From contig JAHEYE010000024.1 in NCBI GenBank assembly GCA_023251695.1, forward strand, positions 1 to 36,704: 36,704 bases of DNA. The letters are read 5' to 3'. Position 1 is the first letter of the stretch. The number at the start of each line of letters is the position of its first letter. A program made the translations under genes and the position numbers. Of this stretch, positions 2-30,888 are shown one piece after another. The stretch comes from Sphingobacteriaceae bacterium (GTDB taxonomy: Bacteria > Bacteroidota > Bacteroidia > B-17B0 > Aurantibacillaceae). The notes under the pieces were generated by a model, which saw only the letters and a program-made list of their open reading frames with translations, was not told the origin of the DNA and searched no databases.

Positions 2-3000
2 AAAATTTTTACCGTTTTACTGATGTGTGCTGCAAGCGCTGTTATCGCGATGGGTTTTTTCAGTAATTTTTTTACAAGAGAAGCAGATTTTATTATTAAT
101 AAAGGCGACAGCTATGAAAGGCTTTGGAAACGGGTAGACAGCTGCCAGAATAAAGGCTTAACCGAATCGGCATTAAAAATTGTAGAAGTAATTTATTCTA
201 AATCCAAGGCCGACAATAATGCGGCTCAATTTGTAAAAGCGGTATTACACCGTATGAAGTTTGAGGCTTATAAAGAAGAGTTTTCTTTAGAGAAATCCAT
301 TATCAAATTACGTGATGAGGCTAATGCCGCTAAATATCCCATTAAGCCCGTGCTTCATAGTATTTTGGCTGATGCTTATTGGCAGTATTTCCAAAACAAC
401 CGTTGGAAATTTTATAACCGGAGCACCGTAGTAAATTTCAACAATGATGACATCACCACTTGGGATCTGAAAACCATCACCGATGCAACCATAAAAAATT
501 ATAAGCTTTCTCTGGAAAGGCCCGATAGTTTAAAACGCACCAAAATTGATATTTATGATGCTGTAATTGAAAAAGGAACAACAGAATGCCGGAAATGGCG
601 ACCAACACTTTACGATTTCCTTGCACACCGCGCGCTTGCTTTTTTCATGGGACAAGAACCCGACATTTCACGCCCCGCCAACAGGTTTACAGTTAACGAT
701 GAAATTTATTTAAAAGCTTATCCTGAATTTTTAACTGCAGATATAAAAAATCCATCCGATAGCCTGGAAACAAAATATTATGCTTTGAAATTAATGCAGG
801 ATGTCATCCGTTTTCATCAAAACGACAACAATCCGGATGCCTTAATAGATGTTGAATTATTGCGGCTCGATTATGTTCACAGTCATTCTCAAAACGCTAA
901 AAAAGATACGCTCTATTTTAATTCGTTAAAAGGATTACAGGGAAAGTTTTCTGCGAGTCCGCGTGTAACCGAGATCGATCACCGCATGGCCAATTGGTAT
1001 TTGCAAAAAGCAAATCAATACAATCCATTAGAAGGGGATAATTACAAATGGTACAAAAAAACTGCTAAAGAAATTTGTCAGCAAGCCATTAAAAAGTTTC
1101 CGGAATCTTATGGGGCTAAAGAATGCCAAAACACGATTGCTTCCATTGAAGCAAAAAGCATGAATTTGGTTGTGGAAGAGGTGAATGAACCAAATAAACC
1201 CTTCCGCGCCATGTTGGCCTCTGCTAACATCAATAAATTATATTTTAAGCTTGTTAAAACGACCCATATTGAATTAAGGAAATTATACAGGAATTATTAT
1301 AGCGACAAGCTTTATAATAAACTTAATTCGTTTCCTACCGTTAAAGCCTTTGAACAGGAAATTCCGAATGATGGCGATTACCAAAGTCATAATTTAGAAA
1401 TAAAAATTCCTGAATTACCCGCAGGTTATTACGTTTTAATTTCTTCCTTAAATCCTGATTTTAAATATGAAAGCAACCTGACTTCTTATGCTCAGGTTAT
1501 TTCCTCCGATATCACCACTATTGAAAGAAGGAAAGAAGATGGCTCTTATGATTTCTATACCCTTAACCGCCAAACAGGTGACCCTCTAAAAAACGTGAAC
1601 GTACAGGTTTGGCACGAAAAATATTCTTATGTAACACGCGAATACGAAATTAAAAAGGGAGAATTAAAAAAGTCGGATGAAAAAGGATATTTTAATATCA
1701 GTTATAATAAAGACGAAGACCGTTCTTTCTTTGTAGAAATAATTAACGGTACAGATTCATACTTCAACAATAACAGTTATTATACCTACAAACCTTACAC
1801 TAACGATTATACAACAGTCCGCTCTTTTATTTTCACCGACCGTGCCATTTACCGTCCGGGACAAACAGTTTATTTTAAATCGATTGTTCTCGAGGGGAAA
1901 AATAATGACAACTATAAAATAAAAACCAATTATCCGGTTACTCTTACTTTTTTTGATGTGAATTATCAAAAAGTTTCTTCGTTGGATTTAACCACAAACG
2001 AATACGGAACCGTAAGCGGTTCGTTTGTTGCGCCGCAAGGAGTGCTCAATGGACAAATGAGAATCACCGATAACCACGGACAGGCGTATTTCTCTGTTGA
2101 AGATTACAAACGCCCGAAGTTTGAAACGAATTTCAATCCTGTAAAAGGTTCTTACAAAATAAATGATGAAATAATTGTTACCGGTATCGCAAAAGCTTAC
2201 GCCGGCAATGTAATAGATGGCGCAAAAGTAAATTACCGTGTTATCCGTCAGATCAATTATCCATATTGGTACTGGTGGTATCGTCCGTATTACAGTTCGG
2301 GCGGGGAAGCTGAAATTACAAACGGCGAAACTATTACTAATGACACCGGCGCCTACATTATTAAATTCAAAGCGCTGCCCGATGAAAGCGTTTCAAAAAC
2401 AAGTCAGGCCACTTACCAATACAGAATAATGGCCGACGTAGTTGATATTAATGGCGAAACACACAATACAGAAACTTATGCAACAGTGGGTTATCAGGCT
2501 TTAAAATTAAATGTTAACGGAGATGACATTGTGGATCAAAACAAAATGAATCCTTTTAATATCACAACTTACAATTTAAATGGTGTGGCTGAAGCAACCA
2601 AGGGAACATTTACTGTTTACAAATTAAAACAGCCTGAAAGGGTTTTCAGGAACCGTTTATGGGCCCAACCCGACAGGCATTCGCTAAATAAAGAGGAGTA
2701 TTACAAAACCTTTTCGACAGATTTATATGCCGACGAGCTAAACAAATACAAATGGGAAAAAGAAAATAAAGTTGCAGAGAAGGCTTTTGATACAGGCACA
2801 AAAACAGAATATGATCTAGCAGCAGAATTAAAAAATCTTAAGCCGGGTGTTTATATTATTGAAGCTGTTTGTAAAGATAAATTCGGTGAGGAAGTAAAAG
2901 CCTTCAATTACTTTACATTATTTAATCAGGACAATACAAACATTCCGGAACAAACACCTGATTGGTTCTATTTCCCGAAAACAAAAGCTGAACCGGGCGA

Positions 3001-6000
3001 AAAAGTTTCTTACATATTACACTCTGCTTATCCTAATGCAAATTACATGTTTGAGTTAGAACATCAGGGAAAAGCTCTAACTACAAAAACGCTGAGTTGT
3101 GCCATGCAACCAAATGAAATTGCAGTTGAAGAAGCTTATCGTGGAAATTTTGCCTTTCATACTACATTCATTAAAAATAACCGCTTCTATCATCACAGTA
3201 ATGTTGTTACAGTTCCGTACACCAATAAAGAACTGGATATTGAATTCCAGACTTTCAGAAATAAATTATTACCAGGGCAACAGGAGGAATGGAAATTAAT
3301 TATTAAAGACAAAAAAGGTGATAAAGCTGCTGCTGAATTAATGGCGGGAATGTATGATGCTTCGCTGGATGCATTCGCTGCGAACAGTTGGTATATGAGT
3401 GTTTACAATACTTATTACGCCAGATTAAATTGGACTTCAGGTGTTGGTCACCAAAATAATTCAACCGAGTTCCATAATTTAAGCAACAATTATGTTTCTG
3501 TTCCTTCGCGTTATTACGATTATCTGAATTATTTCGGATTGTATTTTTACAGTAATTACTATTACAAGGGCGGGCGGGAATATGATTCTTATTCGGATGG
3601 TGCCTATCCGGCAACTGAAGCATCGGGTAATTTAAAGTTAGACGAAGTTTCCGTAACTAAATCATCCCCTTCTCCTAAAAAATCAATGCGTGCTGAAGAA
3701 AAGTCGAAGGACAATAAAAACATGGCGGACAAAGAGCAGGCTGAAGTTACAACAGCTTTTACAGGATCGGGGGAGGGTGCAGGTAATGGCCCCGCCGGAG
3801 GTAAAGACGGTCAGAAAGGCAAAGAATTAGGAAGTGTAAAAGCAAGAAGTAATTTTAATGAGACTGCATTTTTCTTCCCGCATTTGGAAACAAACGAAAA
3901 AGGTGAAACCGTAATTAAGTTTACTGTTCCTGAGAGTTTAACCAAATGGAAAGTAATGGGACTCGCGCATACGAAAGATCTGAAGATAGGTCAGTTTACG
4001 AAAGAAGTCGTAACGCAAAAAGAATTGATGGTTATGCCAAACGTACCGCGTTTTTTCCGTGAAGGTGATAAAATGACTTTTATTTCTAAAATTTCAAATT
4101 TATCCGATGCCGATATGAAAGGTTCTGCTGAATTAAAATTATATGATGCTTTAACCGAACAAGAGATTTCGCACAAAATGATTGAGGCCATGCATGGTGA
4201 ATTCCCAACCATTGGTTACCGTGAATTTGCCGTGAAAAAAGGATTAAGCACTACTATCGAATGGAACATTGCTATACCTGAAGGATACGGCGCGATTAAA
4301 TATAAAATTGTAGCTAAGGCAGGAAATTTCAGTGACGGTGAAGAAATGGCGATTCCGGTTTTAACTAACCGTATGTTAGTTACCGAAAGTATGCCCCTAC
4401 CTATCAGAAGCAATCAAACCAAGGAATTTGATTTTGTGAAATTCGGAAATCAAAATAATAATTCAACAACCTTAAAAAATCATTCCTACACTTTAGAGTT
4501 TACTGCAAATCCCGCTTGGTATGCCGTTCAGGCTCTTCCTTATTTAATGGAATATCCATATGAATGCGCTGAGCAAACCTTTGCAAGATATTATGCAAAC
4601 AGTTTGTCTTCTTATGTAGTAAACTCTAAGCCGAAAATTAAGGCTGTGTTTGAAGCCTGGAAAACATCTAGTCCGGATGCGTTTTTATCTAATCTCGAAA
4701 AAAATCAGGAACTAAAAGCTTTAATGTTAGAAGAAACGCCTTGGGTATTACAATCGAAAAACGAAAGCGAAAATAAAAAGCGTGTTGGTTTATTATTCGA
4801 TTTAAACAAAATGGCGAATGAACAAGCCCGTGCATTTAAAAAATTACAAAAAGCGCAAACTTCAAATGGCGGCTTCTGGTGGTTTGAGGGCGGACCTGAT
4901 GATTGGTACATTACGCAACACATTGCCTCCGGTTTTGGTCACCTTGATAAATTAGGGGTGATAAAAGCACGCGAAAATAGTGAGGTTTGGAACATGGTAA
5001 CTAATGCTGTACAATATTGCGACAACCGTATGCACGAAGAATATGAATGGTTGAAAAAACATGCTCCAAAATACAAAACCGAAAACCATTTGAGTTACAT
5101 GGCCGTTCAGTATTTGTACATGCGCAGTTTCTTCAAAGATGTTACTCTTTCTAGCAGAAACAAAGAACACTTTGATTACTATAAAAAGCAAGAGCAAACT
5201 TACTGGCTTCAAAACGGAAGATTTATGCAAGGTATGATTGCTTTAAGTTTACACCGTTATGAAGATAAAGTGATTCCAAAAGATATTTTAAAATCGTTGA
5301 AAGAAAATTCTTTGAACAGTGAAGAAATGGGCATGTACTGGAAAGAAAATTACGGTTACTACTGGTACGAAGCGCCAATAGAAATGCAGGCCTTAATGAT
5401 TGAAGCATTTGATGAAGTGAACAACGACACAAAAGCGGTTGATGATCTGAAAACCTGGCTAATCAAGAGTAAACAAACACAGCATTGGGGAACAACACGT
5501 TCAACCACTGAAGCGGTTTATGCTTTATTACTGAAAGGAACAGATTGGTTAGCAACAGAACCGAATGTTGAAATTACTGTCGGGGATATTGTATTGGATC
5601 CTAAAAATGATAAAAACCTAAACGCAGAACCGGGAACAGGCTACTTTAAAAAAGTCTGGAATGGTTCGGATATCAAAACCTCCATGAGCAAAATTAAAGT
5701 CGCGAAAAAAGATCAGGGGGTAAGCTACGGCGCTGTTTACTGGCAATATTTTGAGCAGTTAGATAAAATTACACCTCACGAAACGCCACTGAAAATTAAG
5801 AAACAATTGTTCTTACAAAAAAACACAGCCGGCGGTCCGGTTATTGAACCAATAACTGCTGCCACCAAATTAAAACTCGGTGATAAAATAAAAGTGAGAA
5901 TTGAATTGCGCGTTGACCGTGATATGAATTATGTGCATATGAAAGACATGCGAGCAGCAGGTTTTGAGCCAACAAATGTTTTTAGTGGTTACAGATGGCA

Positions 6001-6211
6001 GGATGGTTTGGGTTATTATGAAAGCACAAGGGATGCTGCTACTAACTTCTTCTTCTCTTACCTCAATAAAGGAACTTATGTATTCGAGTACCCATTAGTG
6101 GTGAATCATTATGGTGATTTTAGCAATGGAATAACCACAATTCAATGTATGTATGCCCCTGAGTTTACAAGTCATAGCGAGGGTATAAGGGTTAAAGTGG
6201 CTAAAAACTAA
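2..6211 (+). CDS. alpha-2-macroglobulin family protein, thioester-containing (5' end probably just outside the window)
   Basis: Single 6.2-kb ORF. The frame stays open from nt 2 (K-I-F-T-V-L-L before the first ATG at 23) and reads like the middle of a signal peptide, so the true start is likely upstream of the window. Thioester motif C-A-E-Q (YPYECAEQT) lies at 4565-4576. The block RSNFNETAFFFP follows a ~90-aa low-complexity segment. Size and beta-rich MG-like architecture are typical of bacterial A2M. Confidence 0.9.
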   Translation, partial: KIFTVLLMCAASAVIAMGFFSNFFTREADFIINKGDSYERLWKRVDSCQNKGLTESALKIVEVIYSKSKADNNAAQFVKAVLHRMKFEAYKEEFSLEKSIIKLRDEANAAKYPIKPVLHSILADAYWQYFQNNRWKFYNRSTVVNFNNDDITTWDLKTITDATIKNYKLSLERPDSLKRTKIDIYDAVIEKGTTECRKWRPTLYDFLAHRALAFFMGQEPDISRPANRFTVNDEIYLKAYPEFLTADIKNPSDSLETKYYALKLMQDVIRFHQNDNNPDALIDVELLRLDYVHSHSQNAKKDTLYFNSLKGLQGKFSASPRVTEIDHRMANWYLQKANQYNPLEGDNYKWYKKTAKEICQQAIKKFPESYGAKECQNTIASIEAKSMNLVVEEVNEPNKPFRAMLASANINKLYFKLVKTTHIELRKLYRNYYSDKLYNKLNSFPTVKAFEQEIPNDGDYQSHNLEIKIPELPAGYYVLISSLNPDFKYESNLTSYAQVISSDITTIERRKEDGSYDFYTLNRQTGDPLKNVNVQVWHEKYSYVTREYEIKKGELKKSDEKGYFNISYNKDEDRSFFVEIINGTDSYFNNNSYYTYKPYTNDYTTVRSFIFTDRAIYRPGQTVYFKSIVLEGKNNDNYKIKTNYPVTLTFFDVNYQKVSSLDLTTNEYGTVSGSFVAPQGVLNGQMRITDNHGQAYFSVEDYKRPKFETNFNPVKGSYKINDEIIVTGIAKAYAGNVIDGAKVNYRVIRQINYPYWYWWYRPYYSSGGEAEITNGETITNDTGAYIIKFKALPDESVSKTSQATYQYRIMADVVDINGETHNTETYATVGYQALKLNVNGDDIVDQNKMNPFNITTYNLNGVAEATKGTFTVYKLKQPERVFRNRLWAQPDRHSLNKEEYYKTFSTDLYADELNKYKWEKENKVAEKAFDTGTKTEYDLAAELKNLKPGVYIIEAVCKDKFGEEVKAFNYFTLFNQDNTNIPEQTPDWFYFPKTKAEPGEKVSYILHSAYPNANYMFELEHQGKALTTKTLSCAMQPNEIAVEEAYRGNFAFHTTFIKNNRFYHHSNVVTVPYTNKELDIEFQTFRNKLLPGQQEEWKLIIKDKKGDKAAAELMAGMYDASLDAFAANSWYMSVYNTYYARLNWTSGVGHQNNSTEFHNLSNNYVSVPSRYYDYLNYFGLYFYSNYYYKGGREYDSYSDGAYPATEASGNLKLDEVSVTKSSPSPKKSMRAEEKSKDNKNMADKEQAEVTTAFTGSGEGAGNGPAGGKDGQKGKELGSVKARSNFNETAFFFPHLETNEKGETVIKFTVPESLTKWKVMGLAHTKDLKIGQFTKEVVTQKELMVMPNVPRFFREGDKMTFISKISNLSDADMKGSAELKLYDALTEQEISHKMIEAMHGEFPTIGYREFAVKKGLSTTIEWNIAIPEGYGAIKYKIVAKAGNFSDGEEMAIPVLTNRMLVTESMPLPIRSNQTKEFDFVKFGNQNNNSTTLKNHSYTLEFTANPAWYAVQALPYLMEYPYECAEQTFARYYANSLSSYVVNSKPKIKAVFEAWKTSSPDAFLSNLEKNQELKALMLEETPWVLQSKNESENKKRVGLLFDLNKMANEQARAFKKLQKAQTSNGGFWWFEGGPDDWYITQHIASGFGHLDKLGVIKARENSEVWNMVTNAVQYCDNRMHEEYEWLKKHAPKYKTENHLSYMAVQYLYMRSFFKDVTLSSRNKEHFDYYKKQEQTYWLQNGRFMQGMIALSLHRYEDKVIPKDILKSLKENSLNSEEMGMYWKENYGYYWYEAPIEMQALMIEAFDEVNNDTKAVDDLKTWLIKSKQTQHWGTTRSTTEAVYALLLKGTDWLATEPNVEITVGDIVLDPKNDKNLNAEPGTGYFKKVWNGSDIKTSMSKIKVAKKDQGVSYGAVYWQYFEQLDKITPHETPLKIKKQLFLQKNTAGGPVIEPITAATKLKLGDKIKVRIELRVDRDMNYVHMKDMRAAGFEPTNVFSGYRWQDGLGYYESTRDAATNFFFSYLNKGTYVFEYPLVVNHYGDFSNGITTIQCMYAPEFTSHSEGIRVKVAKN

Positions 6212-6219
6212 TTTATTAT

Positions 6220-6250
6220 ACGGCGGATATCAATACATCCGCCGTTTTTA
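6220..6250 (+). terminator. Rho-independent terminator after the A2M gene
   Basis: Perfect 9-bp stem ACGGCGGAT (6220-6228) / ATCCGCCGT (6237-6245) with an 8-nt loop, followed by a T-run (6245-6249). It begins 9 nt after the stop codon. Confidence 0.75.
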
Positions 6251-6274: not shown

Positions 6275-6282
6275 TATATTTG
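6275..6282 (+). promoter_or_regulatory. candidate Bacteroidota -7 box (TATATTTG) for the GH16/MBOAT operon
   Basis: Exact match to TAnnTTTG, 14 nt upstream of ATG 6297. No well-spaced -33 TTG was seen (the nearest TTG at 6263-6265 is too close). Confidence 0.3.
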
Positions 6283-6296
6283 TTATCCATTAAGGT

Positions 6297-8333
6297 ATGT
6301 TACACCAAATTCATTTAAAACTTATTTTAGTATCCATTACGATGATTTTCTATTCTTGTGGAAGCAGCAACTTTGAAGTGGGAAATTTTGATCCGATAAG
6401 CAACTATCTTAAAAAGGATAATGACACTTTATATAATATTACTACAGACCTGAGCGATGCTGTACTAAGCGGTATCGAAATTCCAACCAAACAACAAACC
6501 GCTTCAGGGTATTTCGTTTTTACTTTTAAAGTCAAGAATAATTCAGCAGACATAAAAAAATATTATTATAAAATCTTCTACGAAAACGTTTCTTACAAGT
6601 TCAATGATACTTCAAAATACGCCCAGGAAAATTTTTACGGTAGTTGGGAAAATGGCTATTATACTTTTAAAGCAACTAAAATTCTTGAGCCCGGGGAAGA
6701 GTCTCTTATTACAGATAGTTTTAAAATTGCCGGAAATCCGCGAAACGAAACAAAATATTTTGGTGCCGATCCCAAAAAATATATTGCCATAGATGATTCC
6801 ATAAACTCGAAAATGGATGTTGTCAGATCAGTTCCCAGTTGGATGAAAACGTGTATAGAAAAAGCAAAAGAGCTTGGAACAACGCTTGATGAGCAAATTT
6901 ATTTAAATGCTGTTTGGGGAATAAATTATGAAAAGCAAAGGCTGAAAGTAAACAACAATAGATGGAAAAGAAACCCGCGAATGGGCATTTATGAATTTAT
7001 GCTCGTTTTAACCTCAACTGAAGATATAGGTAAAATACCAACAGCCATTCACGACATTCAAAAGACGGATTCATTGGGAAAATTTATGAACCCTTTTGGT
7101 TACTTTATTTTTAAAGAAGGCAAAAATCTCCCCAACACATTTGTATTACGCTCTTCAAAAAAAATAAAACTAAGTTCTGAATTGGATCTTGGTTCCGGAA
7201 TTTTCATTGACAAACTTGCAATTAATAAATCACAATTTTCCCTCGATGCTTTAAATGCTACTTGTAATAATTCTCCTTCGCTATATGAAAAAGCACAATT
7301 CGTTCAGTATTTTCATAACATTGATAAAAACTTCACAGTATATAATGTTCCTGAAATTCGGGATGTAACCGGAGAAAATTTTACTAAGTCAGAATATGAG
7401 GGTTTAATGACAAAATATTCTGATAAAAACAAACGCACAAAATTATTTGTGAGTACTTCAGATTGTCCGTGTAAAACAGTAATGTCAAATGCGAAAACCA
7501 AAACACTTAAAATAACCGTTCCGGCAAATGAATCAGGAAAATTAAAAAAAGAGCATGTAGGGCTTTCTTCTAGAATTGGATTTACTTATGGGAAATTCAG
7601 GGCTAAAATTAAATTTCCCGAAATGCTCAGCAAGGATAATGTCTGGAACGGTATTACTAATGCATTTTGGTTATTGTTTCAGGAAGATGCAGAATGGAAT
7701 CTAAGACGTAACTGTGATGCAAAAATAGGGTACATACCGAGGTCAGAACCCGATAATGAAACCGCTCTCGGAAAATCAAAGAGAACACTCGCCTATTCTG
7801 AAATTGATTTTGAAATTGTAAAAGAGTCGCAATACTGGCCAAAGACTTCTTATAAAAACGGGGCCGCGGTTTATAAAACAGATCATGCAGCAAATAATCA
7901 TGACGTAATGGTAACCTGTACTAATTGGGACATGGCTTGTCAGGAACCAAAGCTGTTTAGTTTTGGTGCTAAAGATTTTAAAATTGATAATAACAACTAC
8001 ACCTTACATCGGTGGAATCCTTATTACAGAGCCCTCTCTGCTAAAATTCCAGTAAATCATGACGAGTTGTTTAAAGCGCCTTATTATTATTTTGAAATTG
8101 AGTGGTTACCGGAAAAAATTATTTGGAGAATTGGTCCTGAAAAAGAAAAAATGCATGTTATTTGTGTAATGGATGCTTCCATGTCGGCTATACCAAATAA
8201 CCAAATGATGTTAATGTTTACGCAGGAATGGCATAATGAAGAGTGGTGGCCAACGGCTCCCTATAGACAAAACTTCATTCCTTTTCCAAAAAAAGATTTA
8301 ATAGGAGAAATATTAGAAATTGATATTGAATAA
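6297..8333 (+). CDS. lipoprotein with C-terminal glycoside hydrolase family 16 (ConA-like glucanase) domain; N-terminal ~400 aa unassigned
   Basis: Lipoprotein-type signal (ITMIFYSC21GSS). The C-terminal ~260 aa carry GH16 blocks: GFTYGKFRAKIKFP, NAFWLL, the catalytic motif E-I-D-F-E (7800-7814), YYFEIEWLPEKIIWRIG and MMLMFTQEW. Confidence 0.75.
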   Translation: MLHQIHLKLILVSITMIFYSCGSSNFEVGNFDPISNYLKKDNDTLYNITTDLSDAVLSGIEIPTKQQTASGYFVFTFKVKNNSADIKKYYYKIFYENVSYKFNDTSKYAQENFYGSWENGYYTFKATKILEPGEESLITDSFKIAGNPRNETKYFGADPKKYIAIDDSINSKMDVVRSVPSWMKTCIEKAKELGTTLDEQIYLNAVWGINYEKQRLKVNNNRWKRNPRMGIYEFMLVLTSTEDIGKIPTAIHDIQKTDSLGKFMNPFGYFIFKEGKNLPNTFVLRSSKKIKLSSELDLGSGIFIDKLAINKSQFSLDALNATCNNSPSLYEKAQFVQYFHNIDKNFTVYNVPEIRDVTGENFTKSEYEGLMTKYSDKNKRTKLFVSTSDCPCKTVMSNAKTKTLKITVPANESGKLKKEHVGLSSRIGFTYGKFRAKIKFPEMLSKDNVWNGITNAFWLLFQEDAEWNLRRNCDAKIGYIPRSEPDNETALGKSKRTLAYSEIDFEIVKESQYWPKTSYKNGAAVYKTDHAANNHDVMVTCTNWDMACQEPKLFSFGAKDFKIDNNNYTLHRWNPYYRALSAKIPVNHDELFKAPYYYFEIEWLPEKIIWRIGPEKEKMHVICVMDASMSAIPNNQMMLMFTQEWHNEEWWPTAPYRQNFIPFPKKDLIGEILEIDIE

Positions 8334-8335
8334 CT

Positions 8336-9763
8336 ATGATTTTTAGCAGTGTTATATTTTTGGTTTATTTTTTACCGGTTTTTTTAGCCTTGTATTTTCT
8401 TACACCAACAAGATTTAAAAATGTTGTTTTATTGCTTTCCAGTATTTTCTTTTATGCATGGGGGGCGCCTCTGTTTATTTTTGCAATACTGGCAACAACA
8501 ACAGTAGATTTTTATTTTGTAAAGTTACTGTCAGGGGCGCAAAACGAAAAGAAGAAAAAAGCGTTTTTGGTCCTTTCGCTTTGCTTAAACGTTGGTATGC
8601 TCTTTTATTTTAAGTACTGCAATTTTTTTATTGAGAATTTCAATACCCTCCTTGGAAATTTCGGTGTAAAAGAAGTTGGCTGGACTAAGGTCATATTGCC
8701 AATCGGCATTTCATTTTATACATTCGAAAGTATAACTTACGTGGTTGATGTATACAGAAGAGTTCACAAACCGCTAAACAATTTTTTCCAATACCAACTA
8801 TACATTATTTTATTTCCAAAATTAATTGCGGGACCGATTATCCGGTATCACGATATAGCCGATCAAATTACCGACCGAAGTAATAACGACAACATTGACA
8901 ATAAACTAACAGGATTCCATAGGTTTTGTATTGGGCTCGCTAAAAAAGTAATGATTGCAAACGTTATGGCTTTAAAAGCTGATGAAATTTTCGGATTGCC
9001 TTCAGAATCTTTAAGTACATCGATGGCATGGATAGGGATGTTAGCTTATACTTTTCAGATATATTTTGATTTCTCAGGATATTCCGATATGGCCATTGGT
9101 ATTGGAAAAATGCTAGGTTTTAAATTTCCTGAAAACTTTGATAATCCATATACCTCAAAAAGTATAACTGAATTTTGGAGACGATGGCATATGACACTGG
9201 GAAGTTGGATGAAAAACTATTTATACATTCCATTAGGAGGAAACAAAGTAAATTCAAAAACAAAATTGTATTTTAATTTATGGCTTGTATTCCTTCTGTC
9301 TGGGTTTTGGCATGGAGCGGCTTGGACCTTTATTATCTGGGGGATTTATCACGGAATGTGGCTGGTACTTGAGCGGGTTTTTCTTAGTAAAGTATATGAA
9401 AAAATCGGTGGTTTTGTTTCTACTGTAACTTGTTTTTTACTTGTAGCCATAGGATGGGTTTTTTTCAGGGCAGAAAAAACAACTGATGCTTTATTATTCG
9501 TAAAAAAACTTTTTTTATTCGACTTTCAACTGCCCCCTCGTTTTTTGGACAATGAGTTTTTATTTTTTGGGGCTCTTGCTTTAATTTTCTCTTTTTTTAC
9601 CAGTTTTAAAGTTGGACGTTCAATCCAAAATAAAGTCTATTTTTCATATTACGGAATAAGTGGTACCCTCATAGCAACTCTTCTGGCATGTATATTATTT
9701 ACCCTGTCATTAGCTTCAATTACTTCCTCTGGTTTTAATCCGTTTATTTATTTTAGGTTTTAA
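8336..9763 (+). CDS. MBOAT family O-acyltransferase (AlgI/PatA/DltB-like)
   Basis: Multi-pass membrane protein. MBOAT blocks WRRWHMTLGSWMKNYLYIPLGGN and FLLSGFWHGAAW are present (conserved His326 at 9311-9313). It starts 2 nt after the GH16 stop. Confidence 0.9.
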   Translation: MIFSSVIFLVYFLPVFLALYFLTPTRFKNVVLLLSSIFFYAWGAPLFIFAILATTTVDFYFVKLLSGAQNEKKKKAFLVLSLCLNVGMLFYFKYCNFFIENFNTLLGNFGVKEVGWTKVILPIGISFYTFESITYVVDVYRRVHKPLNNFFQYQLYIILFPKLIAGPIIRYHDIADQITDRSNNDNIDNKLTGFHRFCIGLAKKVMIANVMALKADEIFGLPSESLSTSMAWIGMLAYTFQIYFDFSGYSDMAIGIGKMLGFKFPENFDNPYTSKSITEFWRRWHMTLGSWMKNYLYIPLGGNKVNSKTKLYFNLWLVFLLSGFWHGAAWTFIIWGIYHGMWLVLERVFLSKVYEKIGGFVSTVTCFLLVAIGWVFFRAEKTTDALLFVKKLFLFDFQLPPRFLDNEFLFFGALALIFSFFTSFKVGRSIQNKVYFSYYGISGTLIATLLACILFTLSLASITSSGFNPFIYFRF

Positions 9764-11241
9764 TGTTTCAATCTAAATTAATATATCACCGGTTTTTCTT
9801 TGTGGGCATCCTTGTTTTTTTATTCGTTCCTCTTTTGCAAAACACTTTTTATTTTAAGTGGATTCAACCACTTAAAGGTGCTTATCAACACATAGATGAT
9901 ATAGGTCTGACAAAAGATAATTGGCTTGAGGGAGCTTACCAGTTACGTAAAGAAGAATATCTCGATAATACTTTTGGCTTCAGAAATTACTATGTTCGGC
10001 TTAATAACCAAATCAATCTTTCCTTATTCAGAAAGTCAAACGTAAAAAAAGTAGTAGTTGGAAAAGGCGGTTTTTTATATGAAGATGATTACATAAATGC
10101 GTATTATGGTAACAACTTCGTTGGTAAAGAAAAGCTTGGGGAGCGTTTTAATAAATTAAAAATTGTTCAGAATTTACTTCTTGATCAGGGTATTTTACTC
10201 GAAGTTGTATTTGCCCCCGGAAAAGCTTCCTTTTATCCTGAATTCATTCCAGATAACTGGAGGTCAGAAAAAAAACTGAGCAACTACCAATATTGCCGGA
10301 AATTGTGTGATGAAATGGGTATTGATTACATAGACTTCAACGCGTGGTTTCTTAAAGAAAAAGGCATTTCCCCTTACGACCTTTATCCTAAAACTGGAAT
10401 TCATTGGAGCAACTATGGAGCCTTGCTTGCAATTGATTCTTTAAAATCACACATCGAAAAAAGAACTAAAATGAAGCTTCGGGAATTTGTTATAGATAAT
10501 GTAAGTTTTTCCGATTCATTACTTAGTCCGGATAATGATATTGGCGAATCCATGAATCTTGTTTATGATATTCCGGTTTTACCAATGCCTTATGCGAATT
10601 ATCATTGGATTGAGAACGAAAATGCGATGAAACCAAGTGCATTATTTATTGGTGACAGTTATTTTTGGAATATTTATTATCAGGGGTTCACAAATAATTT
10701 TTTTACAGATTGTAAATTTTGGTATTATAATAAAACTATTTATCCTGAAAGTGTACCTGAACGTGAAGTAAAAAAACTTGATCTAAGAAAAGAACTTTCC
10801 GGCTACAAGGTTGTAGTTTTAATGGCTACCGAAAGTAACATTCATGATATCGGATGGGGATTTATTGAGAATGTTTATGAAATATTTAAACAAGAAATCA
10901 AATCTGCATTCCGTAAAAGTGTCTATTTGAAAGACCTTGTACGCGAAATACATTCTTCTCCCGGATACATGTCTGAAATCAAGAAAAAAGCTACAGCTAA
11001 CAATATTCCATTTGAAACACAGATTCAAATGGATGCTGAATATATTTACCGCCGGGATTTTTCATCAGCTGAAATCGTCACTCTTACAGAGAAGAATAAA
11101 GAAAGAATCAGGAACACCCCTGAATGGATGGGCCAGATAAAAAAGAAAGCCAAAGAAAAGAACATGACGGAAGATGAGATGATAGAGCTGGACGCTAAAT
11201 ACATTTATGTAACGGAACAAAGAGATAAATTACAAAACTAA
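9763..11241 (+). CDS. membrane-anchored AlgJ/AlgX-type (SGNH-like) putative O-acetyltransferase/esterase, paralog 1
   Basis: N-terminal single TM segment (FFFVGILVFLFVPLL). Blocks resemble the AlgJ/AlgX family: VVGKGGFLYE, VFAPGKASFYPEFIP, YPKTGIHWSNYGA and FIGDSYFW. The ATG overlaps the MBOAT stop (TAATG at 9761-9765). Family call is from remembered motifs, not a search. Confidence 0.6.
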   Translation: MFQSKLIYHRFFFVGILVFLFVPLLQNTFYFKWIQPLKGAYQHIDDIGLTKDNWLEGAYQLRKEEYLDNTFGFRNYYVRLNNQINLSLFRKSNVKKVVVGKGGFLYEDDYINAYYGNNFVGKEKLGERFNKLKIVQNLLLDQGILLEVVFAPGKASFYPEFIPDNWRSEKKLSNYQYCRKLCDEMGIDYIDFNAWFLKEKGISPYDLYPKTGIHWSNYGALLAIDSLKSHIEKRTKMKLREFVIDNVSFSDSLLSPDNDIGESMNLVYDIPVLPMPYANYHWIENENAMKPSALFIGDSYFWNIYYQGFTNNFFTDCKFWYYNKTIYPESVPEREVKKLDLRKELSGYKVVVLMATESNIHDIGWGFIENVYEIFKQEIKSAFRKSVYLKDLVREIHSSPGYMSEIKKKATANNIPFETQIQMDAEYIYRRDFSSAEIVTLTEKNKERIRNTPEWMGQIKKKAKEKNMTEDEMIELDAKYIYVTEQRDKLQN

Positions 11242-11266
11242 GACTGAAAAAAATTAAAATGTTATT

Positions 11267-12727
11267 TTGCTGATGCTTTTTTTAAAGAATCATATTAAAC
11301 ACATGTTATTACTCGGATTACTTATCCCGTTTTTGCTTATTTATTTTCAGCAAATAAAACCATTTACAGGACTTAAACCTTTAAAAGGTTATTTTATTCC
11401 TAAATCTTATTCCACTTTTAACGTTGATTCGTGGTTTAGCGGAACATATCAATCAACTACCGATGAGTATATTAAAGAAGAATTTGGGTTCAGAAACGCT
11501 TTTGTTCGTTTGCACAATCAACTGAGCTTTTGGTTTTTTGGAAAAGCAAATTTAGATGAAATTATTATTGGCAAAGAAAACTATCTTTTTGAAGAACCTT
11601 ATATTGATGCTTTAAAAAGAAAAGAGCCTCCGGATTTTAAAGGATTGAATGATACGCTTCAGTTAATAAAACGATTACAAGATACTTTAAAGCTGTTGGG
11701 AAAAGAAATGATTATTGTTTTAGCCCCAAGCAAAGCACGAATATACTCGGAATATATTCCTGATGATTATAAACCGCTAAATGAAGAGAATTCATATTAC
11801 AATTTTTATTGCAAGGCGCTTAGTAATTACCGTATACAGTACATTGATTTTAATTCTCTTTTTTTAAAAAAGAAAAGTACATCTAAATATTTGTTGTTTC
11901 CGAAATTGGGAATACACTGGAGCAGGCTTGAAGCAGTTTTCGCCGCAGATAGTATGTTCAAATATCTGGCATGGAAGTCAAATTGTAATTTACCAAAATT
12001 AGAAATAAGTGATATAAAAGAGATTGATACATTGCAGATGCCAGATAATGATATTATTGAAAGCATGAATCTTTTATTCTTTCCAGATTTTGATAAAATG
12101 GCGTATCCGTTAAAAATTAAGATTGATTCTGAAAATAAGTCTAAGCGAAATTTGATGGTGATATCCGATAGTTATTGGTGGGATATTTATTCCAGAGGTA
12201 TACCAAAAGACATTTTTGAGAACAATGAATTCTTGTATTATAATAATCAGTTGTTCGGTAATAATTATATGGGAGACACTGACCCAAAAAAAATTGACAT
12301 TAAGAGGCATATATTAAATGCTGATCATATTATTTTATTATTCACCGAACCTAATTTAGATAGATTGGGGTTTGGCTTTATTGGAAGCGCTTTAAGCGCA
12401 ATGAAAAGGAATATCCAACCAACTAATGCCGAATTAAAAGATATTATTGATGCTATAAAAAACAATAAAGAGTGGTGTCAAAACATAGCCGAAAAGTCAA
12501 TCATTAATAATATAAGTGCTGACTCAATGATGACAATTGACGCAATGTGGTATTTTCAGCGGGAGGGTCCCTTAAAAAAAGAATTATTTATTAATGATGT
12601 GAAATCTTTGATTAAATCCAATCCAGTATGGATTAAAAATGTCCATGCGAAAGCCAAACAAAGAGGATTAAGCATTGATTCCATGATGACTTTAGACGCT
12701 ATTTGGTATATCCAACAACAAAAATAA
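11267..12727 (+). CDS. membrane-anchored AlgJ/AlgX-type (SGNH-like) protein, paralog 2
   Basis: Collinear block-by-block similarity to the previous ORF: EFGFRNAFVRLHNQ, IIGKENYLFE, VLAPSKARIYSEYIP, FPKLGIHWS, MPDNDIIESMNL and VISDSYWW. The start is TTG 11267 or in-frame ATG 11273. Confidence 0.6.
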   Translation: MLMLFLKNHIKHMLLLGLLIPFLLIYFQQIKPFTGLKPLKGYFIPKSYSTFNVDSWFSGTYQSTTDEYIKEEFGFRNAFVRLHNQLSFWFFGKANLDEIIIGKENYLFEEPYIDALKRKEPPDFKGLNDTLQLIKRLQDTLKLLGKEMIIVLAPSKARIYSEYIPDDYKPLNEENSYYNFYCKALSNYRIQYIDFNSLFLKKKSTSKYLLFPKLGIHWSRLEAVFAADSMFKYLAWKSNCNLPKLEISDIKEIDTLQMPDNDIIESMNLLFFPDFDKMAYPLKIKIDSENKSKRNLMVISDSYWWDIYSRGIPKDIFENNEFLYYNNQLFGNNYMGDTDPKKIDIKRHILNADHIILLFTEPNLDRLGFGFIGSALSAMKRNIQPTNAELKDIIDAIKNNKEWCQNIAEKSIINNISADSMMTIDAMWYFQREGPLKKELFINDVKSLIKSNPVWIKNVHAKAKQRGLSIDSMMTLDAIWYIQQQK

Positions 12728-19867: not shown

Positions 19868-20386
19868 ATGAAAAAGATTATTTCGGTTTTAGCGATTGTA
19901 GCATTAAGTAGTTTTGCTCTTAAGGCTCAAAAAATCGGTTATGTTGATACCGATTATATCCTCACTAGTATTCCTGAATATAAGGCAGCACAGGGGGAAA
20001 TTGATAAATTATCGGTGGATTGGCAAAAGGAAGTTGAGGCCAAATACACTGAGATTGATAAACTCTATAAAGCTTATCAGGCCGATGCTATTTTATTGAC
20101 CGATGATATGAAGAAAAAACGCGAGAACGAAATTATCAATAAAGAAAAGGAAGTAAAAGAATTACAAAAACAACGTTTTGGGGTTGACGGGGAATTATTC
20201 AAGAAGCGTCAGGAAATGGTAAAACCACTTCAGGATAAAATCTATAACGCGGTTAAAGCTGTTGCTGAACGCGGTGGTTTAGCTATCATTTTAGATAAAG
20301 CGGGACAAGTATCGATTCTTTACGCTAATACAAAATACGATAAGAGTGAAGATGTACTGACCTATATGGGATATAATAAAAAATAA
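19868..20386 (+). CDS. OmpH/Skp family periplasmic chaperone (copy 1)
   Basis: Signal peptide, then QKIGYVDTDYIL and a long K/E-rich coiled region. The position immediately after bamA is canonical. Confidence 0.8.
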   Translation: MKKIISVLAIVALSSFALKAQKIGYVDTDYILTSIPEYKAAQGEIDKLSVDWQKEVEAKYTEIDKLYKAYQADAILLTDDMKKKRENEIINKEKEVKELQKQRFGVDGELFKKRQEMVKPLQDKIYNAVKAVAERGGLAIILDKAGQVSILYANTKYDKSEDVLTYMGYNKK

Positions 20387-20403
20387 AACAGCAATTAACA
20401 GAT

Positions 20404-20982
20404 ATGAAAACAACAATGAAAAAGGCGGCCCTTGTATTTTTTGCGGTTGCGGCCTTTATGGCGAATGCTCAAAAAGTAGCGCATCTGCATTTGGATTCTT
20501 TGTCCAACCTGATGCCTGAAACTAAAACAGCAAAGGGCGTTGCTGAGGCTTATTTCAATGATTTGAAAAAAACAGTTTCTTCAATGGAAGAAGAGTTTCA
20601 GAAAAAATATAACGACTACCTGCAAAATGAAGCCACGATGAACGATTTGGTAAAAAAAACAAAGCAGGATGAATTGCAGTCGCTACAAACCCGCATTCAG
20701 GATTTTAATCAGCAAGCTCAGGCGGATTATCAGAAAAAATCGGCTGAGTTAACCGCTCCAATTATGGAGAAAGCCAAAAAAGCCATAGAAGCTGTTGCAA
20801 AAGAAAATGGTTATAAATATGTTTTGGACACTAGTGCAGGAAACGTTTTGTATTCGGAAGCAAGTGAAGATATTCTGTTAACGGTAAAAAAGAAATTGGA
20901 TTCAATGCCACTGGCGAATATTCCCGGAGCAAATCCTGAAAAACCAAAAACTAATCCCGGCCCCGCAAAAGGAGGCAAATAA
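20404..20982 (+). CDS. OmpH/Skp family periplasmic chaperone (copy 2)
   Basis: Signal peptide, coiled-coil body, GYKYVLDTS block and a Pro/Lys-rich tail ending GGK. Confidence 0.8.
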   Translation: MKTTMKKAALVFFAVAAFMANAQKVAHLHLDSLSNLMPETKTAKGVAEAYFNDLKKTVSSMEEEFQKKYNDYLQNEATMNDLVKKTKQDELQSLQTRIQDFNQQAQADYQKKSAELTAPIMEKAKKAIEAVAKENGYKYVLDTSAGNVLYSEASEDILLTVKKKLDSMPLANIPGANPEKPKTNPGPAKGGK

Positions 20983-21004
20983 TAATTTTATAAAAAATTA
21001 AAAA

Positions 21005-21601
21005 ATGAATAAGACATTAATAAAAATAGTATCGGTTGCCTTGTTTACATTAGGAAGTTTTTCTTTTGCAAGTGCACAAAAAATGGCTCATATAGAACTA
21101 GATTCGTTAGTAAGCATGATGCCCGAAACCAAAACTGCTAAAGATGTGGCACAAGCCTATTGGAAAGATTTGGAAAAAACGGTTATCAGTATGGATAATG
21201 AATTTCAAACCAAATACAACGATTACCTGAGTGCTCAGGCAACCATGAGCGAATTGATAAAAAAAACAAAAGAAGATGAATTGCAGTCATTGCAAAGACG
21301 TATTGAAGATTTTAAACAGCAGGCTCAAATGGATTACCAAAAAAAATCGGCTGAACTTACGGCTCCTATCATGGAGAAAGCCAAAAAGGGTATTGAAGCA
21401 GTATCTAAAGAAGGCGGATACAAGTATGTTCTTGACACCAGTACGGGTAATATTCTTTATTCCGATCCTGCAGATGATATTTTGATGGCAGTGAAAAAGA
21501 AACTTGACTCGATGCCTTTAGCTACGATTCCGGGTGCCGGTGCAACCGAAAAGCCAAAAACAAATACACCAAAGACAACACCAAAAACCGGCGGTAAATA
21601 A
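21005..21601 (+). CDS. OmpH/Skp family periplasmic chaperone (copy 3, recent paralog of copy 2)
   Basis: About 70% aa identity to copy 2 by eye, including the identical run DYQKKSAELTAPIMEKAKK. Confidence 0.8.
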   Translation: MNKTLIKIVSVALFTLGSFSFASAQKMAHIELDSLVSMMPETKTAKDVAQAYWKDLEKTVISMDNEFQTKYNDYLSAQATMSELIKKTKEDELQSLQRRIEDFKQQAQMDYQKKSAELTAPIMEKAKKGIEAVSKEGGYKYVLDTSTGNILYSDPADDILMAVKKKLDSMPLATIPGAGATEKPKTNTPKTTPKTGGK

Positions 21602-28853: not shown

Positions 28854-29942
28854 ATGTCAAAAGTCGCATTAATTACAGGAGTAACGGGTCAGGACGGCGC
28901 CTATTTAGCCGAATTTTTATTAGATAAGGGTTACCATGTGCATGGTGTTAAGCGTCGCAGTTCGCTTTTTAATACCGATAGGATTGATCACCTATATCAG
29001 GATCTGCATGAGAAGAACGTACAATTTAAGTTACATTATGGCGATTTAACCGACAGCACGAATCTTATACGTATTATTCAGGAAGTACAGCCTGATGAAA
29101 TTTATAATCTTGCTGCGCAATCACATGTAAAGGTAAGTTTTGAAACTCCCGAATATACAGCCAATGCGGACGCTATTGGTGCATTAAGAATTTTAGAGGC
29201 CATCCGTATTTTACGGTTGGAAAAGAAAACGCGTTTTTACCAGGCGGGAACTTCGGAAATGTTCGGTTTAGTTCAGGAAGTTCCACAAAAAGAAACAACG
29301 CCGTTTTATCCACGAAGCCCTTATGGTGTAGCTAAGGTTTACGCTTATTGGATAACTAAAAATTACCGTGAAGCTTATGGCATGTTCGCTTGTAACGGAA
29401 TTTTATTTAATCATGAAAGCCCGATAAGAGGCGAAACTTTTGTAACACGTAAGATCACAAGAGCAGCTGCAAAAATAAGTCTGGGCATGCAGGAGAAATT
29501 ATTTTTAGGGAATCTGGATGCAGAACGCGACTGGGGGCATGCACAGGATTACGTTGAGGGTATGTGGATGATGATGCAGCAAAAAACAGCAGATGATTAT
29601 ATTTTAGCAACCGGAATAAAAATTTCAGTACGAAAGTTTGTTGAGATGTCGTTTGCAGAAGTTGGTATTACTATTGAGTGGAAAGGTAAAGACGCAAACG
29701 AAAAAGGCCATAACAAAGCTACAGGAAAGATTGTCGTGGAGATTGATGAAAAATATTACCGTCCTGCTGAAGTTGATTTACTTGTCGGAGATCCCTCTAA
29801 AGCAAAAAAAGTTTTGGGATGGGAACCAAAACGTAACGTTGCGCAACTCTGCAAAGAAATGGTGGCAAGCGACCTCGAGTTATTCAAGCGCGATAAATAT
29901 TTGATTGAGGGCGGACATAAAGTTTTAAACTATAAAGAATAG
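28854..29942 (+). CDS. gmd: GDP-mannose 4,6-dehydratase
   Basis: [38 protein letters not shown] and [10 protein letters not shown] (the SDR Y-x3-K motif). Confidence 0.95.
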
Positions 29943-29946
29943 CCTG

Positions 29947-30888
29947 TTGGAGTTTTCTTCTAAAATATATATTGCCGGTCACAGGGGAATGGTTGGTTCA
30001 GCCATTTTACGCAATTTACAAAAACAAGGATTTACTAATATCATCACAAGAACTTCGGCTGAATTAGATTTAAGAAAGCAACAAGCTGTTGAAGGCTTTT
30101 TTGCTAAAGAAAAACCGGAATATGTTTTTTTGGCGGCAGCTAAAGTGGGCGGTATTCACGCAAATAATACTTATCGTGCCGATTTTATTTATGAAAATAT
30201 AATGATTCAAAACAATGTGATTCATTCTGCATTTGTAAATAAAGTCAAAAAATTAATGTTTCTTGGCTCTTCCTGCATTTATCCGAAACTGGCACCGCAA
30301 CCTTTAAAAGAAGAATATTTATTGTCGGGCTATCTGGAAGACACCAACGAGCCTTATGCTATTGCTAAAATTGCCGGTATAAAACTTTGTGAATCGTATA
30401 AACGGCAGTATGGTTGTGATTTTATAGCCGTGATGCCAACAAATCTTTACGGCCCTAATGATAATTACAATTTGAATAATTCACACGTTCTCCCTGCCTT
30501 GATCCGGAAATTTCACGACGCCAAAGAAACTAATGCTCCTCATATTGAGATGTGGGGAACCGGAAAAGCGATGCGTGAGTTTTTACATTCGGATGATATG
30601 GCAGATGCCTGTGTTTACCTGATGAAAAAATACAGCGGACAAAAAATAGTAAATATTGGTACAGGCACCGATTTAACTATTAATGATCTCGCTTTGCTTA
30701 TCAAAAAAATTGTTGGTTATGCCGGAGATATTAAGCATGATTTATCAAAACCTGATGGTACTCCGCGGAAATTAATGGATGTGGGTTTTTTGCACGGCCT
30801 TGGCTGGAAACACAAAATTGATCTTGAGTCCGGAATAAAAATGGTTTACGAAGATTTCAGGAAAAAAGAGGGAGTTAAGGTTTGGTAA
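29947..30888 (+). CDS. fcl: GDP-L-fucose synthase
   Basis: [15 protein letters not shown] Rossmann motif, GSSCIYPK and [12 protein letters not shown] start is forced, because the first in-frame ATG lies inside the G-x-x-G-x-x-G motif. Confidence 0.95.

Follow-up and report, generated by a model that had tools for sequence, protein, structure and literature searches.

We analyzed a 36,704-nucleotide stretch of DNA (contig JAHEYE010000024.1 of assembly GCA_023251695.1, from a Sphingobacteriaceae bacterium of the Bacteroidota), hereafter the window, in which four consecutive forward-strand genes, here called P1 to P4, encode a lipoprotein with a C-terminal GH16-fold domain, an MBOAT (membrane-bound O-acyltransferase) and two AlgJ-type paralogs (Table 1). 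A preliminary description, made from the sequence of the window, had proposed that these genes form an uncharacterized module for the O-acetylation and remodeling of a glycan. Reading the junctions back from the DNA confirmed the proposed layout of four co-directional open reading frames (ORFs): P1 and P2 are separated by 2 nt (TAA-ct-ATG), P2 and P3 overlap by 1 nt at 9763 (TAATG), and P4 begins 25 nt after P3 if it starts with the TTG at 11267, or 31 nt after it if it starts with the ATG at 11273. The terminator described on the 5′ side was located as a hairpin followed by a T-run; it closes the upstream alpha-2-macroglobulin gene and forms the 5′ boundary of the four-gene unit. Between this hairpin and P1, 15 nt 5′ of the P1 start, lies TATATTTG, a putative −7 promoter element that matches the Bacteroidota consensus TAnnTTTG, reportedly described by Bayley and colleagues in 2000. 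On the 3′ side, the 95-nt gap described between P4 and dxs (from 12823) is present, and it contains no terminator-like site. The operon-like coupling extends to related loci, where the gap between P1 and the MBOAT gene ranges from −1 to 11 nt (11 of 11 loci) and that between the MBOAT gene and the AlgJ-like gene has a median of 2 nt. The four genes are a genuine operon. As had also been noted, the four-gene module contains no glycosyltransferase or synthase, no AlgF-like gene and no exporter.

Table 1. Positions in the window of the four genes, their predicted functional residues and the flanking signals.
Feature	Nucleotides	Residues	Strand	Description or basis
Terminator-like hairpin	6220..6245		+	9 pairs, 6 G-C, then TTTTTAT
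TATATTTG, putative −7 promoter element	6275..6282		+	Match to TAnnTTTG consensus only
P1 gene	6297..8333	678 aa	+	Lipoprotein with C-terminal GH16-fold domain
P1 module copy	6801..6935	169-213	+	Inserted in N-terminal region
P1 GH16-fold domain		~395-678 (C-terminal ~290 residues)	+	AlphaFold2 model and Foldseek
P1 ExDxE motif (EIDFE)	7800..7814	E502-I-D504-F-E506	+	On strand 501-508 of the model
P2 gene	8336..9763	475 aa	+	AlgI/PatA-type MBOAT
P2 His326 in WHG	9311..9313	326	+	Candidate universally conserved MBOAT catalytic His; role inferred from PMC12148441
P2 FIYFRF, FxYxxF acyl-shuttle motif	9743..9760	470-475	+	Tyr472 predicted acyl carrier
P3 gene	9763..11241	492 aa	+	AlgJ-type SGNH-like, paralog clade A
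P3 GIHW	10396..10407	G212-I-H214-W215	+	HMM alignment to AlgJ 4o8v; His214 predicted base
P3 GDSY	10651..10662		+	Ser299 predicted nucleophile, inferred from position
P3 module copy 1	10927..11058	389-432	+	HMM; model helices
P3 module copy 2	11089..11217	443-485	+	HMM; model helices
P4 gene	11267..12727	486 aa	+	Second AlgJ-type paralog, clade B
P4 GIHW	11909..11920	215-218	+	His217
P4 SDSY	12164..12175	300-303	+	Ser302
P4 module copy 1	12434..12565	390-433	+	HMM
P4 module copy 2	12590..12721	442-485	+	HMM
HMM, hidden Markov model.

Predicted acyl-transfer proteins, GH16-fold lipoprotein and shared module

The earlier assignment of P2 to the MBOAT family is borne out by a match to Pfam PF03062 far above the curated threshold (E=1e-31, 110.9 bits; cut-off 27). 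Its nearest solved structure is DltB (6bug, E=2e-29), and the only NCBIfam match, also to DltB, stays below threshold, with 171 bits where 375 are required. D-alanylation, the role of DltB, was considered for P2 and rejected: DltA, DltC and DltX are lacking, and the shuttle tyrosine lies on the MBOAT itself. This tyrosine belongs to an FxYxxF motif that is kept in 73 of 73 full-length MBOATs of related loci, all of which end in (N/S)PFIYFRF; the exact WHG string around the candidate catalytic histidine of P2 is found in 25 of the same 73. In PatA, experiments have shown that the tyrosine of the C-terminal FxYxxF is auto-acetylated from acetyl-CoA and then donates the acetyl group to PatB (PMC12148441). 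A shuttle tyrosine on the MBOAT itself implies that the donor is an acyl-CoA, unlike in the Dlt system.

P3 and P4 were proposed to be two AlgJ/AlgX-type paralogs, and sequence and predicted structure agree with this. They score 50.7 and 51.3 bits against PF16822 (ALGX, cut-off 26.5), in a match that spans only profile positions 1-135 of 268, and they are 32% identical to each other over their full length (E=2e-81). Both are built from one N-terminal hydrophobic membrane anchor, followed by a catalytic domain and a pair of C-terminal modules. The AlphaFold2 model of P3 has a predicted local distance difference test (pLDDT) score of 89, and its only significant PDB matches in a Foldseek search are AlgJ, AlgX and Bacillus PatB1, the best being AlgJ (4o8v, E=6.5e-10), with PatB1 at E about 4e-6. 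The fold is of the circularly permuted SGNH-like type of the AlgJ/AlgX/PatB1 class. P3 matches the GDSL family of Pfam at E=0.19 only, and neither P3 nor P4 is a canonical, non-permuted SGNH/GDSL protein of the PatB/Ape1 type.

The active site of these paralogs combines conserved and altered elements. AlgJ proteins carry two signatures, PhiPhiPhiPxK and (R/K)TDTHW (PMC9487903). The first is present in both paralogs, as VVFAPGK in P3 and IVLAPSK in P4; the second has become KTGIHW in P3 and KLGIHW in P4, so that neither conforms to (R/K)TDTHW. The position of the triad Asp is occupied by Gly in 86 of 89 AlgJ-like relatives, and the His and Trp that follow are present in all 89. The Ser of (G/S)DSY is equally invariant (89/89), as is the residue equivalent to Asn265 of P3, and every family-invariant residue is retained in both P3 and P4. 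As judged from these alignments, the AlgJ-like family has kept the AlgJ fold and the predicted nucleophile and base, with the triad Asp replaced by an invariant Gly.

P1 begins with a lipoprotein-type signal peptide (...MIFYSC21), whose lipobox Cys21 is kept in at least 90% of homologues, and its N-terminus suggests that the protein is probably periplasm-facing. The first ~370 residues, which contain the invariant motifs ENFYGSWE, GNPRNE and NNRWKRNPRMG, appear from sequence comparison to be a novel region. In the AlphaFold2 model (pLDDT 88; predicted template modeling score, pTM, 0.88), the C-terminal part of P1 folds as a GH16 jelly-roll. Foldseek returned 145 PDB matches to this model at E≤0.001, and the best 50 are all GH16 or GH16-like; the top matches have E about 5e-9, probability 1.0 and target TM scores of 0.5-0.64, and the matches listed include lichenases, laminarinases, carrageenases, agarases, xyloglucan endotransglycosylases and Crh5. 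The EIDFE sequence, which lies ~105 residues into the domain, is invariant in 36 homologues as well as in a more divergent set. Identity to solved GH16 members is about 10-14%. The model thus presents a clear GH16 fold in a highly divergent sequence.

P1, P3 and P4 are linked by a small repeated unit. The C-termini of P3 and P4 each contain two copies of a helix-turn-helix unit of ~45 residues (consensus IKEIINRIRNDPEWMKDIKEKAKEKNISLDEMIRLDAEYLYEQEK), the helices of which are modeled in P3 with pLDDT >90. An HMM built from these four copies only detects one copy in P1, at residues 173-209 (independent E-value 4e-6), which a later HMM widens to the boundaries given in Table 1. Run against 1718 ORFs, an HMM built solely from AlgJ-like copies finds the unit in every full-length ORF of the P1 family (86 of 86; median independent E-value 1.5e-11). 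Relatives of P1 carry 0, 1 or 2 copies at one site, and this variable copy number indicates that the module is an inserted unit. Neither the module nor the N-terminal region of P1 has a Pfam model, and the module has no NCBIfam model either.

The module extends well beyond the four genes. In a search of 1.84 billion representative proteins it occurs in 863 protein clusters, and 70 long matches comprise 61 AlgJ-like proteins, 8 polytopic GT-C-like membrane proteins (two with PMT_2) and 1 P1-like protein. It is also found C-terminally in DUF2079 proteins, in several polytopic GT-C-like families and in GDSL-type proteins. This distribution suggests that the module may direct P1, AlgJ-like and GT-C-like enzymes to one polymer or one complex. 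Two further arrangements were seen. Three lipoproteins of 147-183 residues (P0251, P0254, P0260) consist of a lipoprotein signal and 2-3 tandem module copies, with nothing else. In one locus, the module forms the C-terminus of two GDSL-type (canonical SGNH-like) proteins that have a membrane anchor (L099:4020-5267, − strand, and L099:7465-8931, + strand). Their neighbors are polytopic membrane proteins, a GT2 and a P1 homologue, and the locus contains no MBOAT.

Conservation of the pair and divergence of the twin genes

To analyze the association of these genes more quantitatively, we compared two sets of loci: 80 genome loci selected by their AlgJ-like genes, which with the window make 81, and 80 metagenome loci selected with a divergent P1 relative as query, 26 of which have 5 kb on both sides. 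In the first set, an MBOAT gene lies directly 5′ of the AlgJ-like gene in 76 of the 81 loci, across Flavobacteriales, Bacteroidales, Saprospiraceae, Sphingobacteriales and other Bacteroidota metagenome-assembled genomes (MAGs), in unrelated gene contexts. The Sphingobacteriaceae isolate GCA_002319075.1 carries the pair too. P1 is present in 12 of these 81 loci (~15%), each time directly 5′ of the MBOAT gene. A further locus, L079, has a P1-like gene of 33% identity at a distance of 7 kb from a reversed pair of AlgJ-like and MBOAT genes. In the second set, MBOAT or AlgJ-like genes are found within 5 kb in 15 of the 26 fully flanked loci. The P1-selected loci display three gene orders (P1>MBOAT>AlgJ-like, MBOAT>AlgJ-like>P1, and convergent) in lineages that are 35-70% identical. 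In another 5 of the 26, only GT2, GT-C-like, sulfatase-fold or module-bearing genes are nearby.

Linkage of P1 to the acetylation pair is thus common and does not depend on gene order, but it is optional. What is conserved as the core is an MBOAT gene with one AlgJ-like gene, and the GH16-like gene is an accessory; a second AlgJ-like gene stands beside the first in only a handful of the 81 loci. The preliminary description had treated the four genes as one module. That proposal holds in so far as P1 and the pair co-occur beyond one lineage, in rearranged orders and with a common domain, but the four-gene unit as such is not conserved.

Several features of individual loci were recorded alongside these counts. 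A protein family of 1230-1470 residues is encoded directly 5′ of the MBOAT gene in seven loci (L026, L034, L053, L054, L059, L061, L070; e.g. L026:1176-5126), where it accompanies AlgJ-like genes of 536-592 residues with up to four modules counted. Bacteroidota-type pairs also occur in four loci labeled as Akkermansia, Clostridia, Hydrocarboniphaga and Methylacidiphilales MAGs (L028, L051, L057, L071), which are probably mis-binned contigs. In five loci (L106, L116, L131, L145, L158; e.g. L106:12015-13745), a P1 homologue lacks MBOAT neighbors, and the gene that comes after it on that strand encodes a GH29 alpha-L-fucosidase with a PA14 domain. The arrangement could mean that the substrate of P1 contains fucose, or it may reflect no more than lineage synteny.

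The presence of two AlgJ-like genes behind one MBOAT gene had suggested a PatA-PatB-Ape1 logic, in which one paralog writes acetyl groups and the other erases them. In favor of this idea, two paralogs do come after a single MBOAT gene, and AlgJ and AlgX show weak esterase activity in vitro (PMC9487903). However, both paralogs are of the circularly permuted AlgJ type, a fold whose characterized members are all transferases, and both retain all family-invariant residues. The phylogeny argues in the same direction. In a neighbor-joining tree, the AlgJ-like proteins of the P1-bearing lineage fall into three old clades, A (including P3), B (including P4) and C, and these combine freely: clade A occurs alone in L002-L006, close relatives that lack the second paralog; clades A and B occur together in the window, L001, L007 and L132; clades C and A occur in L010, and L009 has the order MBOAT-C-MBOAT-A. 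Tandem MBOAT/AlgJ-like pairs are also found in L098 and L136, so that every AlgJ-like gene of L009, L098 and L136 is paired with an MBOAT of its own, and a clade-B-like gene directly follows the MBOAT gene in L097 and L107. An MBOAT for each copy points to two transferases rather than an esterase, and we regard the division into writer and eraser as highly improbable.

A second way of using two paralogs would be a relay, in which the MBOAT would hand its acetyl group to one paralog, a receiver only, and the second paralog would place it on the polymer. Alginate acetylation requires AlgJ and AlgX in succession (PMC9487903), and the P3 and P4 genes are neighbors served by a single MBOAT. Yet a single AlgJ-like gene suffices at most Bacteroidota loci, P3 and P4 have the same architecture, and neither contains the carbohydrate-binding domain of the AlgX type, which makes such a relay quite unlikely. 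On sequence grounds, the twin fits two transferases of different specificity.

Proposed mechanism, its target and the alternatives

Taken together, the results lead us to a reading to which we assign a probability of about 0.6: the operon acetylates and trims one envelope glycan at the periplasmic side of the inner membrane, guided by the module. By analogy with PatA, P2 would charge Tyr472 in its C-terminal FIYFRF with an acyl group, the likeliest being acetyl drawn from acetyl-CoA. P3 (through Ser299 and His214) and P4 (through Ser302 and His217) would accept the acyl group from this tyrosine and pass it to sugar hydroxyls, probably differing in position or acceptor. P1, in which the ExDxE center is intact, would hydrolyze or transglycosylate the same beta-linked glycan, as its linkage to the pair and the common module suggest, and the two-helix module would gather P1, P3 and P4 onto one polymer or complex. 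The glycan itself would be synthesized or decorated elsewhere; candidates are lipopolysaccharide (LPS) or a protein O-glycan, a polymer whose decorations come from polyprenol-phosphate sugars, and peptidoglycan. What the analysis shows are the families, folds, motifs and linkage of the genes and the module that the proteins have in common; that the acyl group is acetyl, which way it is transferred, what P1 does, how the module functions and which glycan is the target are steps that we infer.

Several observations weigh against this reading. The catalytic Asp of AlgJ, AlgX and PatB1 corresponds to Gly212 in P3, so that the activity of P3 and P4 is assumed; a Ser-His dyad does have precedent among SGNH enzymes. 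The designation of P1 as a GH16 lipoprotein, made in the preliminary description, stands as regards the fold, the ExDxE motif and the lipoprotein N-terminus, but the score against PF00722 (19.7 bits) falls below the cut-off of 22, with weak matches in 28 of 36 P1 homologues (best E=6e-6). A sequence search of the PDB with the P1 family profile did not find GH16, single-sequence searches of the PDB with P1 and P3 gave nothing at E≤10, and no Pfam or NCBIfam family matches P1 above threshold (nor does any NCBIfam family match P3). With these sequence searches failing, the GH16 assignment depends entirely on fold and motif. P1 is placed in the periplasm rather than at the surface for one reason only, that no acidic stretch follows Cys21. 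About 85% of MBOAT/AlgJ-like loci lack P1, and 6 of the 26 fully flanked P1-selected loci have no partner of any of the kinds described above. The five loci with GH29 beside P1 form one subclade with a conserved housekeeping context (YchF, ComM-like). Finally, the function given to the module is conjectural.

Some of these points would suit a different role for P1, namely that of a glycanase serving nutrient acquisition, which would share no more than synteny with the acetylation genes. GH16 enzymes of Bacteroidota are typically catabolic, and both the partnerless loci and the five in which P1 precedes a GH29 fucosidase would be natural in that case. But no SusC/SusD genes lie nearby, P1 is translationally coupled to the MBOAT gene (11/11 loci), the association recurs in three gene orders across the divergent lineages, and P1 has the module in common with AlgJ-like and GT-C-like proteins. 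We consider a catabolic P1 very unlikely.

What, then, is the glycan? Clustering of the neighbors in 160 loci revealed no recurrent synthase or exporter; the only recurrent neighbors are GT2, GT-C-like and sulfatase-fold proteins, together with lineage-specific housekeeping synteny. Found repeatedly near P1 or the pair are a GT2 of the polyprenol-phosphate-sugar type, GT-C-like proteins with PMT_2 or DUF2079, a membrane sulfatase-fold protein (LtaS/EptA-like) and a module-bearing GDSL protein. In seven loci (L128, L138, L146, L147, L150, L154, L156; e.g. L156:8746-11175), a membrane protein of ~810 residues with a Sulfatase (LtaS/EptA-like) domain is encoded a few genes from P1 homologues, with a GT2 that has two C-terminal transmembrane helices and a polytopic protein of ~800 residues. 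In our reading, a synthase-dependent exopolysaccharide whose genes lie close by is not the target. The absence of a synthase, the variable contexts, the several pairs per genome and the GT2, GT-C and sulfatase neighbors lead us to favor a glycan that is decorated at the periplasmic face: LPS, a protein O-glycan or a novel polymer.

Genes for envelope and housekeeping functions make up the rest of the window, and none of them is for a polysaccharide synthase or exporter. They encode an MBL-fold protein, DUF6089, UppS, BamA, three Skp/OmpH paralogs, an M23 peptidase, DUF4292, a TPR protein, a nucleotidyltransferase, TruB, UppP, Gmd, Fcl, two Wzi-like proteins, a WecA-like GT4 and RecO; a scan of the window against Rfam gave no RNA family at threshold. 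A fucose-containing glycan encoded at 28854-35151 had been named as a possible substrate. This cluster comprises Gmd and Fcl, for GDP-fucose synthesis, followed by two paralogous proteins of ~530 residues flanking the WecA-like GT4, one of them with a weak Wzi match. We dropped it as a partner of the module: it lies 16 kb away, behind housekeeping genes, no synteny supports the association, and nothing ties the module to it. Two observations concern the envelope genes in between: the three OmpH/Skp paralogs (172, 192 and 198 aa) lie in tandem at 19868-21601 behind BamA, and, with BamA called from a TTG at 17139 and UppS ending at 17244, the two genes would share about 105 nt, so that this start is probably miscalled.

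Directly 5′ of the operon, at 23-6211, lies the gene for a 2062-aa bacterial alpha-2-macroglobulin with MG2, A2M and bMG10 domains. This adjacency is kept in the clade to which the window belongs (L001-L004, L006, L009, L019, L104, L117 and L132), and not in L007 or L008. In enterobacteria, alpha-2-macroglobulin is paired with PBP1C, and the adjacency could hint at a theme of envelope defense.

Peptidoglycan is a serious rival as the substrate. In this alternative, the pair would be the Bacteroidota counterpart of PatA/PatB, O-acetylating peptidoglycan against lysozyme and autolysins, with P1 and the module acting on or binding the sacculus. Like the pat genes, the two genes of the pair are found by themselves, in housekeeping contexts that vary, and with no synthase near; in this lineage the operon follows the gene for a periplasmic defense protein, alpha-2-macroglobulin; MurF-Alr fusions are encoded nearby in 5 loci; and an O-acetylated wall is documented in Bacteroides (PMC1199599). 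However, the clusters for O-acetylation of peptidoglycan (OAP) in Bacteroides and Porphyromonas use canonical SGNH proteins of the Ape1 type, not the AlgJ type (PMC1199599). At least two distinct pairs occur in L030, L056 and L059, and L018 and L034 come from one MAG, a multiplicity that suits variable glycans. The recurrent GT2 and GT-C-like neighbors fall outside known peptidoglycan chemistry, and we know of no GH16 enzyme that cuts peptidoglycan. Peptidoglycan is, in our judgment, unlikely to be the substrate, though it deserves real weight.

A bolder possibility takes the recurrent neighbors as parts of one system. The module would then mark a Bacteroidota-wide pathway, so far unrecognized, whose building and decorating steps at the periplasmic face would yield a distinct envelope glycopolymer, resembling lipoteichoic acid (LTA) or a secondary wall polymer in its logic, and would serve as a polymer-binding address tag in the manner of SLH or cell-wall-binding repeats. 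The pathway would comprise a GT2 polyprenol-phosphate sugar synthase, GT-C-like proteins, a sulfatase-fold transferase, the MBOAT/AlgJ-like acetyltransferases and a GH16-like remodeler. To our knowledge, no teichoic-acid-like polymer has been described in Bacteroidota. We hold this rather unlikely, and continue to prefer the acetylation and trimming of one periplasmic-face glycan as set out above.

Comparison with known acylation systems

MBOAT-SGNH pairs are the general bacterial route to the acylation of envelope polymers, which controls lysozyme resistance, immune recognition and polymer turnover. Bacteroidota hold a large branch of such pairs that is, as the preliminary description stated for this module, uncharacterized: homologues are named 'hypothetical protein', and a literature search found no study of this MBOAT/AlgJ-like system in Bacteroidota. 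The branch is distinguished by Gly in place of the triad Asp, by a coupled GH16-fold enzyme and by a common appended domain. Because that domain links acetyltransferases, glycosyltransferases and a glycanase, it offers a handle both for the search for the target polymer and for cataloguing the enzymes. Should the target turn out to be an envelope polymer that is new, or a modification of glycans general to this abundant phylum, it would be a missing piece of Bacteroidota envelope biology.

Among characterized systems, the module resembles the AlgI/AlgJ/AlgX/AlgF machinery of Pseudomonas alginate in combining an MBOAT with circularly permuted SGNH-like proteins, in the anchoring of P3 and P4, which is that of AlgJ, and in the PhiPhiPhiPxK signature. 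Unlike the alginate system, it has no synthase operon, no AlgF and no carbohydrate-binding module of the AlgX type; its paralogs differ from AlgJ and AlgX in the Asp-to-Gly change within (R/K)TDTHW and in their C-terminal two-helix modules; and it has a GH16-fold lipoprotein where the alginate operon has a lyase.

The PatA1/PatB1 and PatA2/PatB2 systems of Bacillus cereus and B. anthracis likewise pair an MBOAT with an AlgX-like (DHHW) partner acting on a wall polymer, with several pairs per genome and with the polymer-synthesis genes elsewhere. The Gram-positive PatB1 differs from P3 and P4 in having TDHHW and KDS motifs, a full triad and a beta-sandwich cap (PMC9487903), and the Bacillus system has neither an associated hydrolase nor a common module. 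With the PatA/PatB/Ape1 systems of Neisseria, Campylobacter and the Bacteroides OAP clusters, the module shares the FxYxxF tyrosine shuttle, a periplasmic enzyme with a Ser nucleophile and a stand-alone, synthase-free gene cluster. PatB and Ape1, in contrast, are canonical non-permuted SGNH proteins, whereas the second gene here is a transferase-type paralog and not an esterase of the Ape1 type.

The related loci also recall the LTA decoration systems of Firmicutes (DltB/DltD/DltX, CsbB/YfhO and LtaS), in that both bring together an MBOAT with an SGNH-like protein, a GT2 with a GT-C-like protein, and a sulfatase-fold protein. The likeness is one of gene sets only, and DltA, DltC and DltX have no counterparts here. 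P1, finally, shares with GH16 enzymes the beta-jelly-roll and an invariant ExDxE on a strand, and differs from typical members of that family in the fusion of this domain to a novel N-terminal region of ~370 residues that carries the module.

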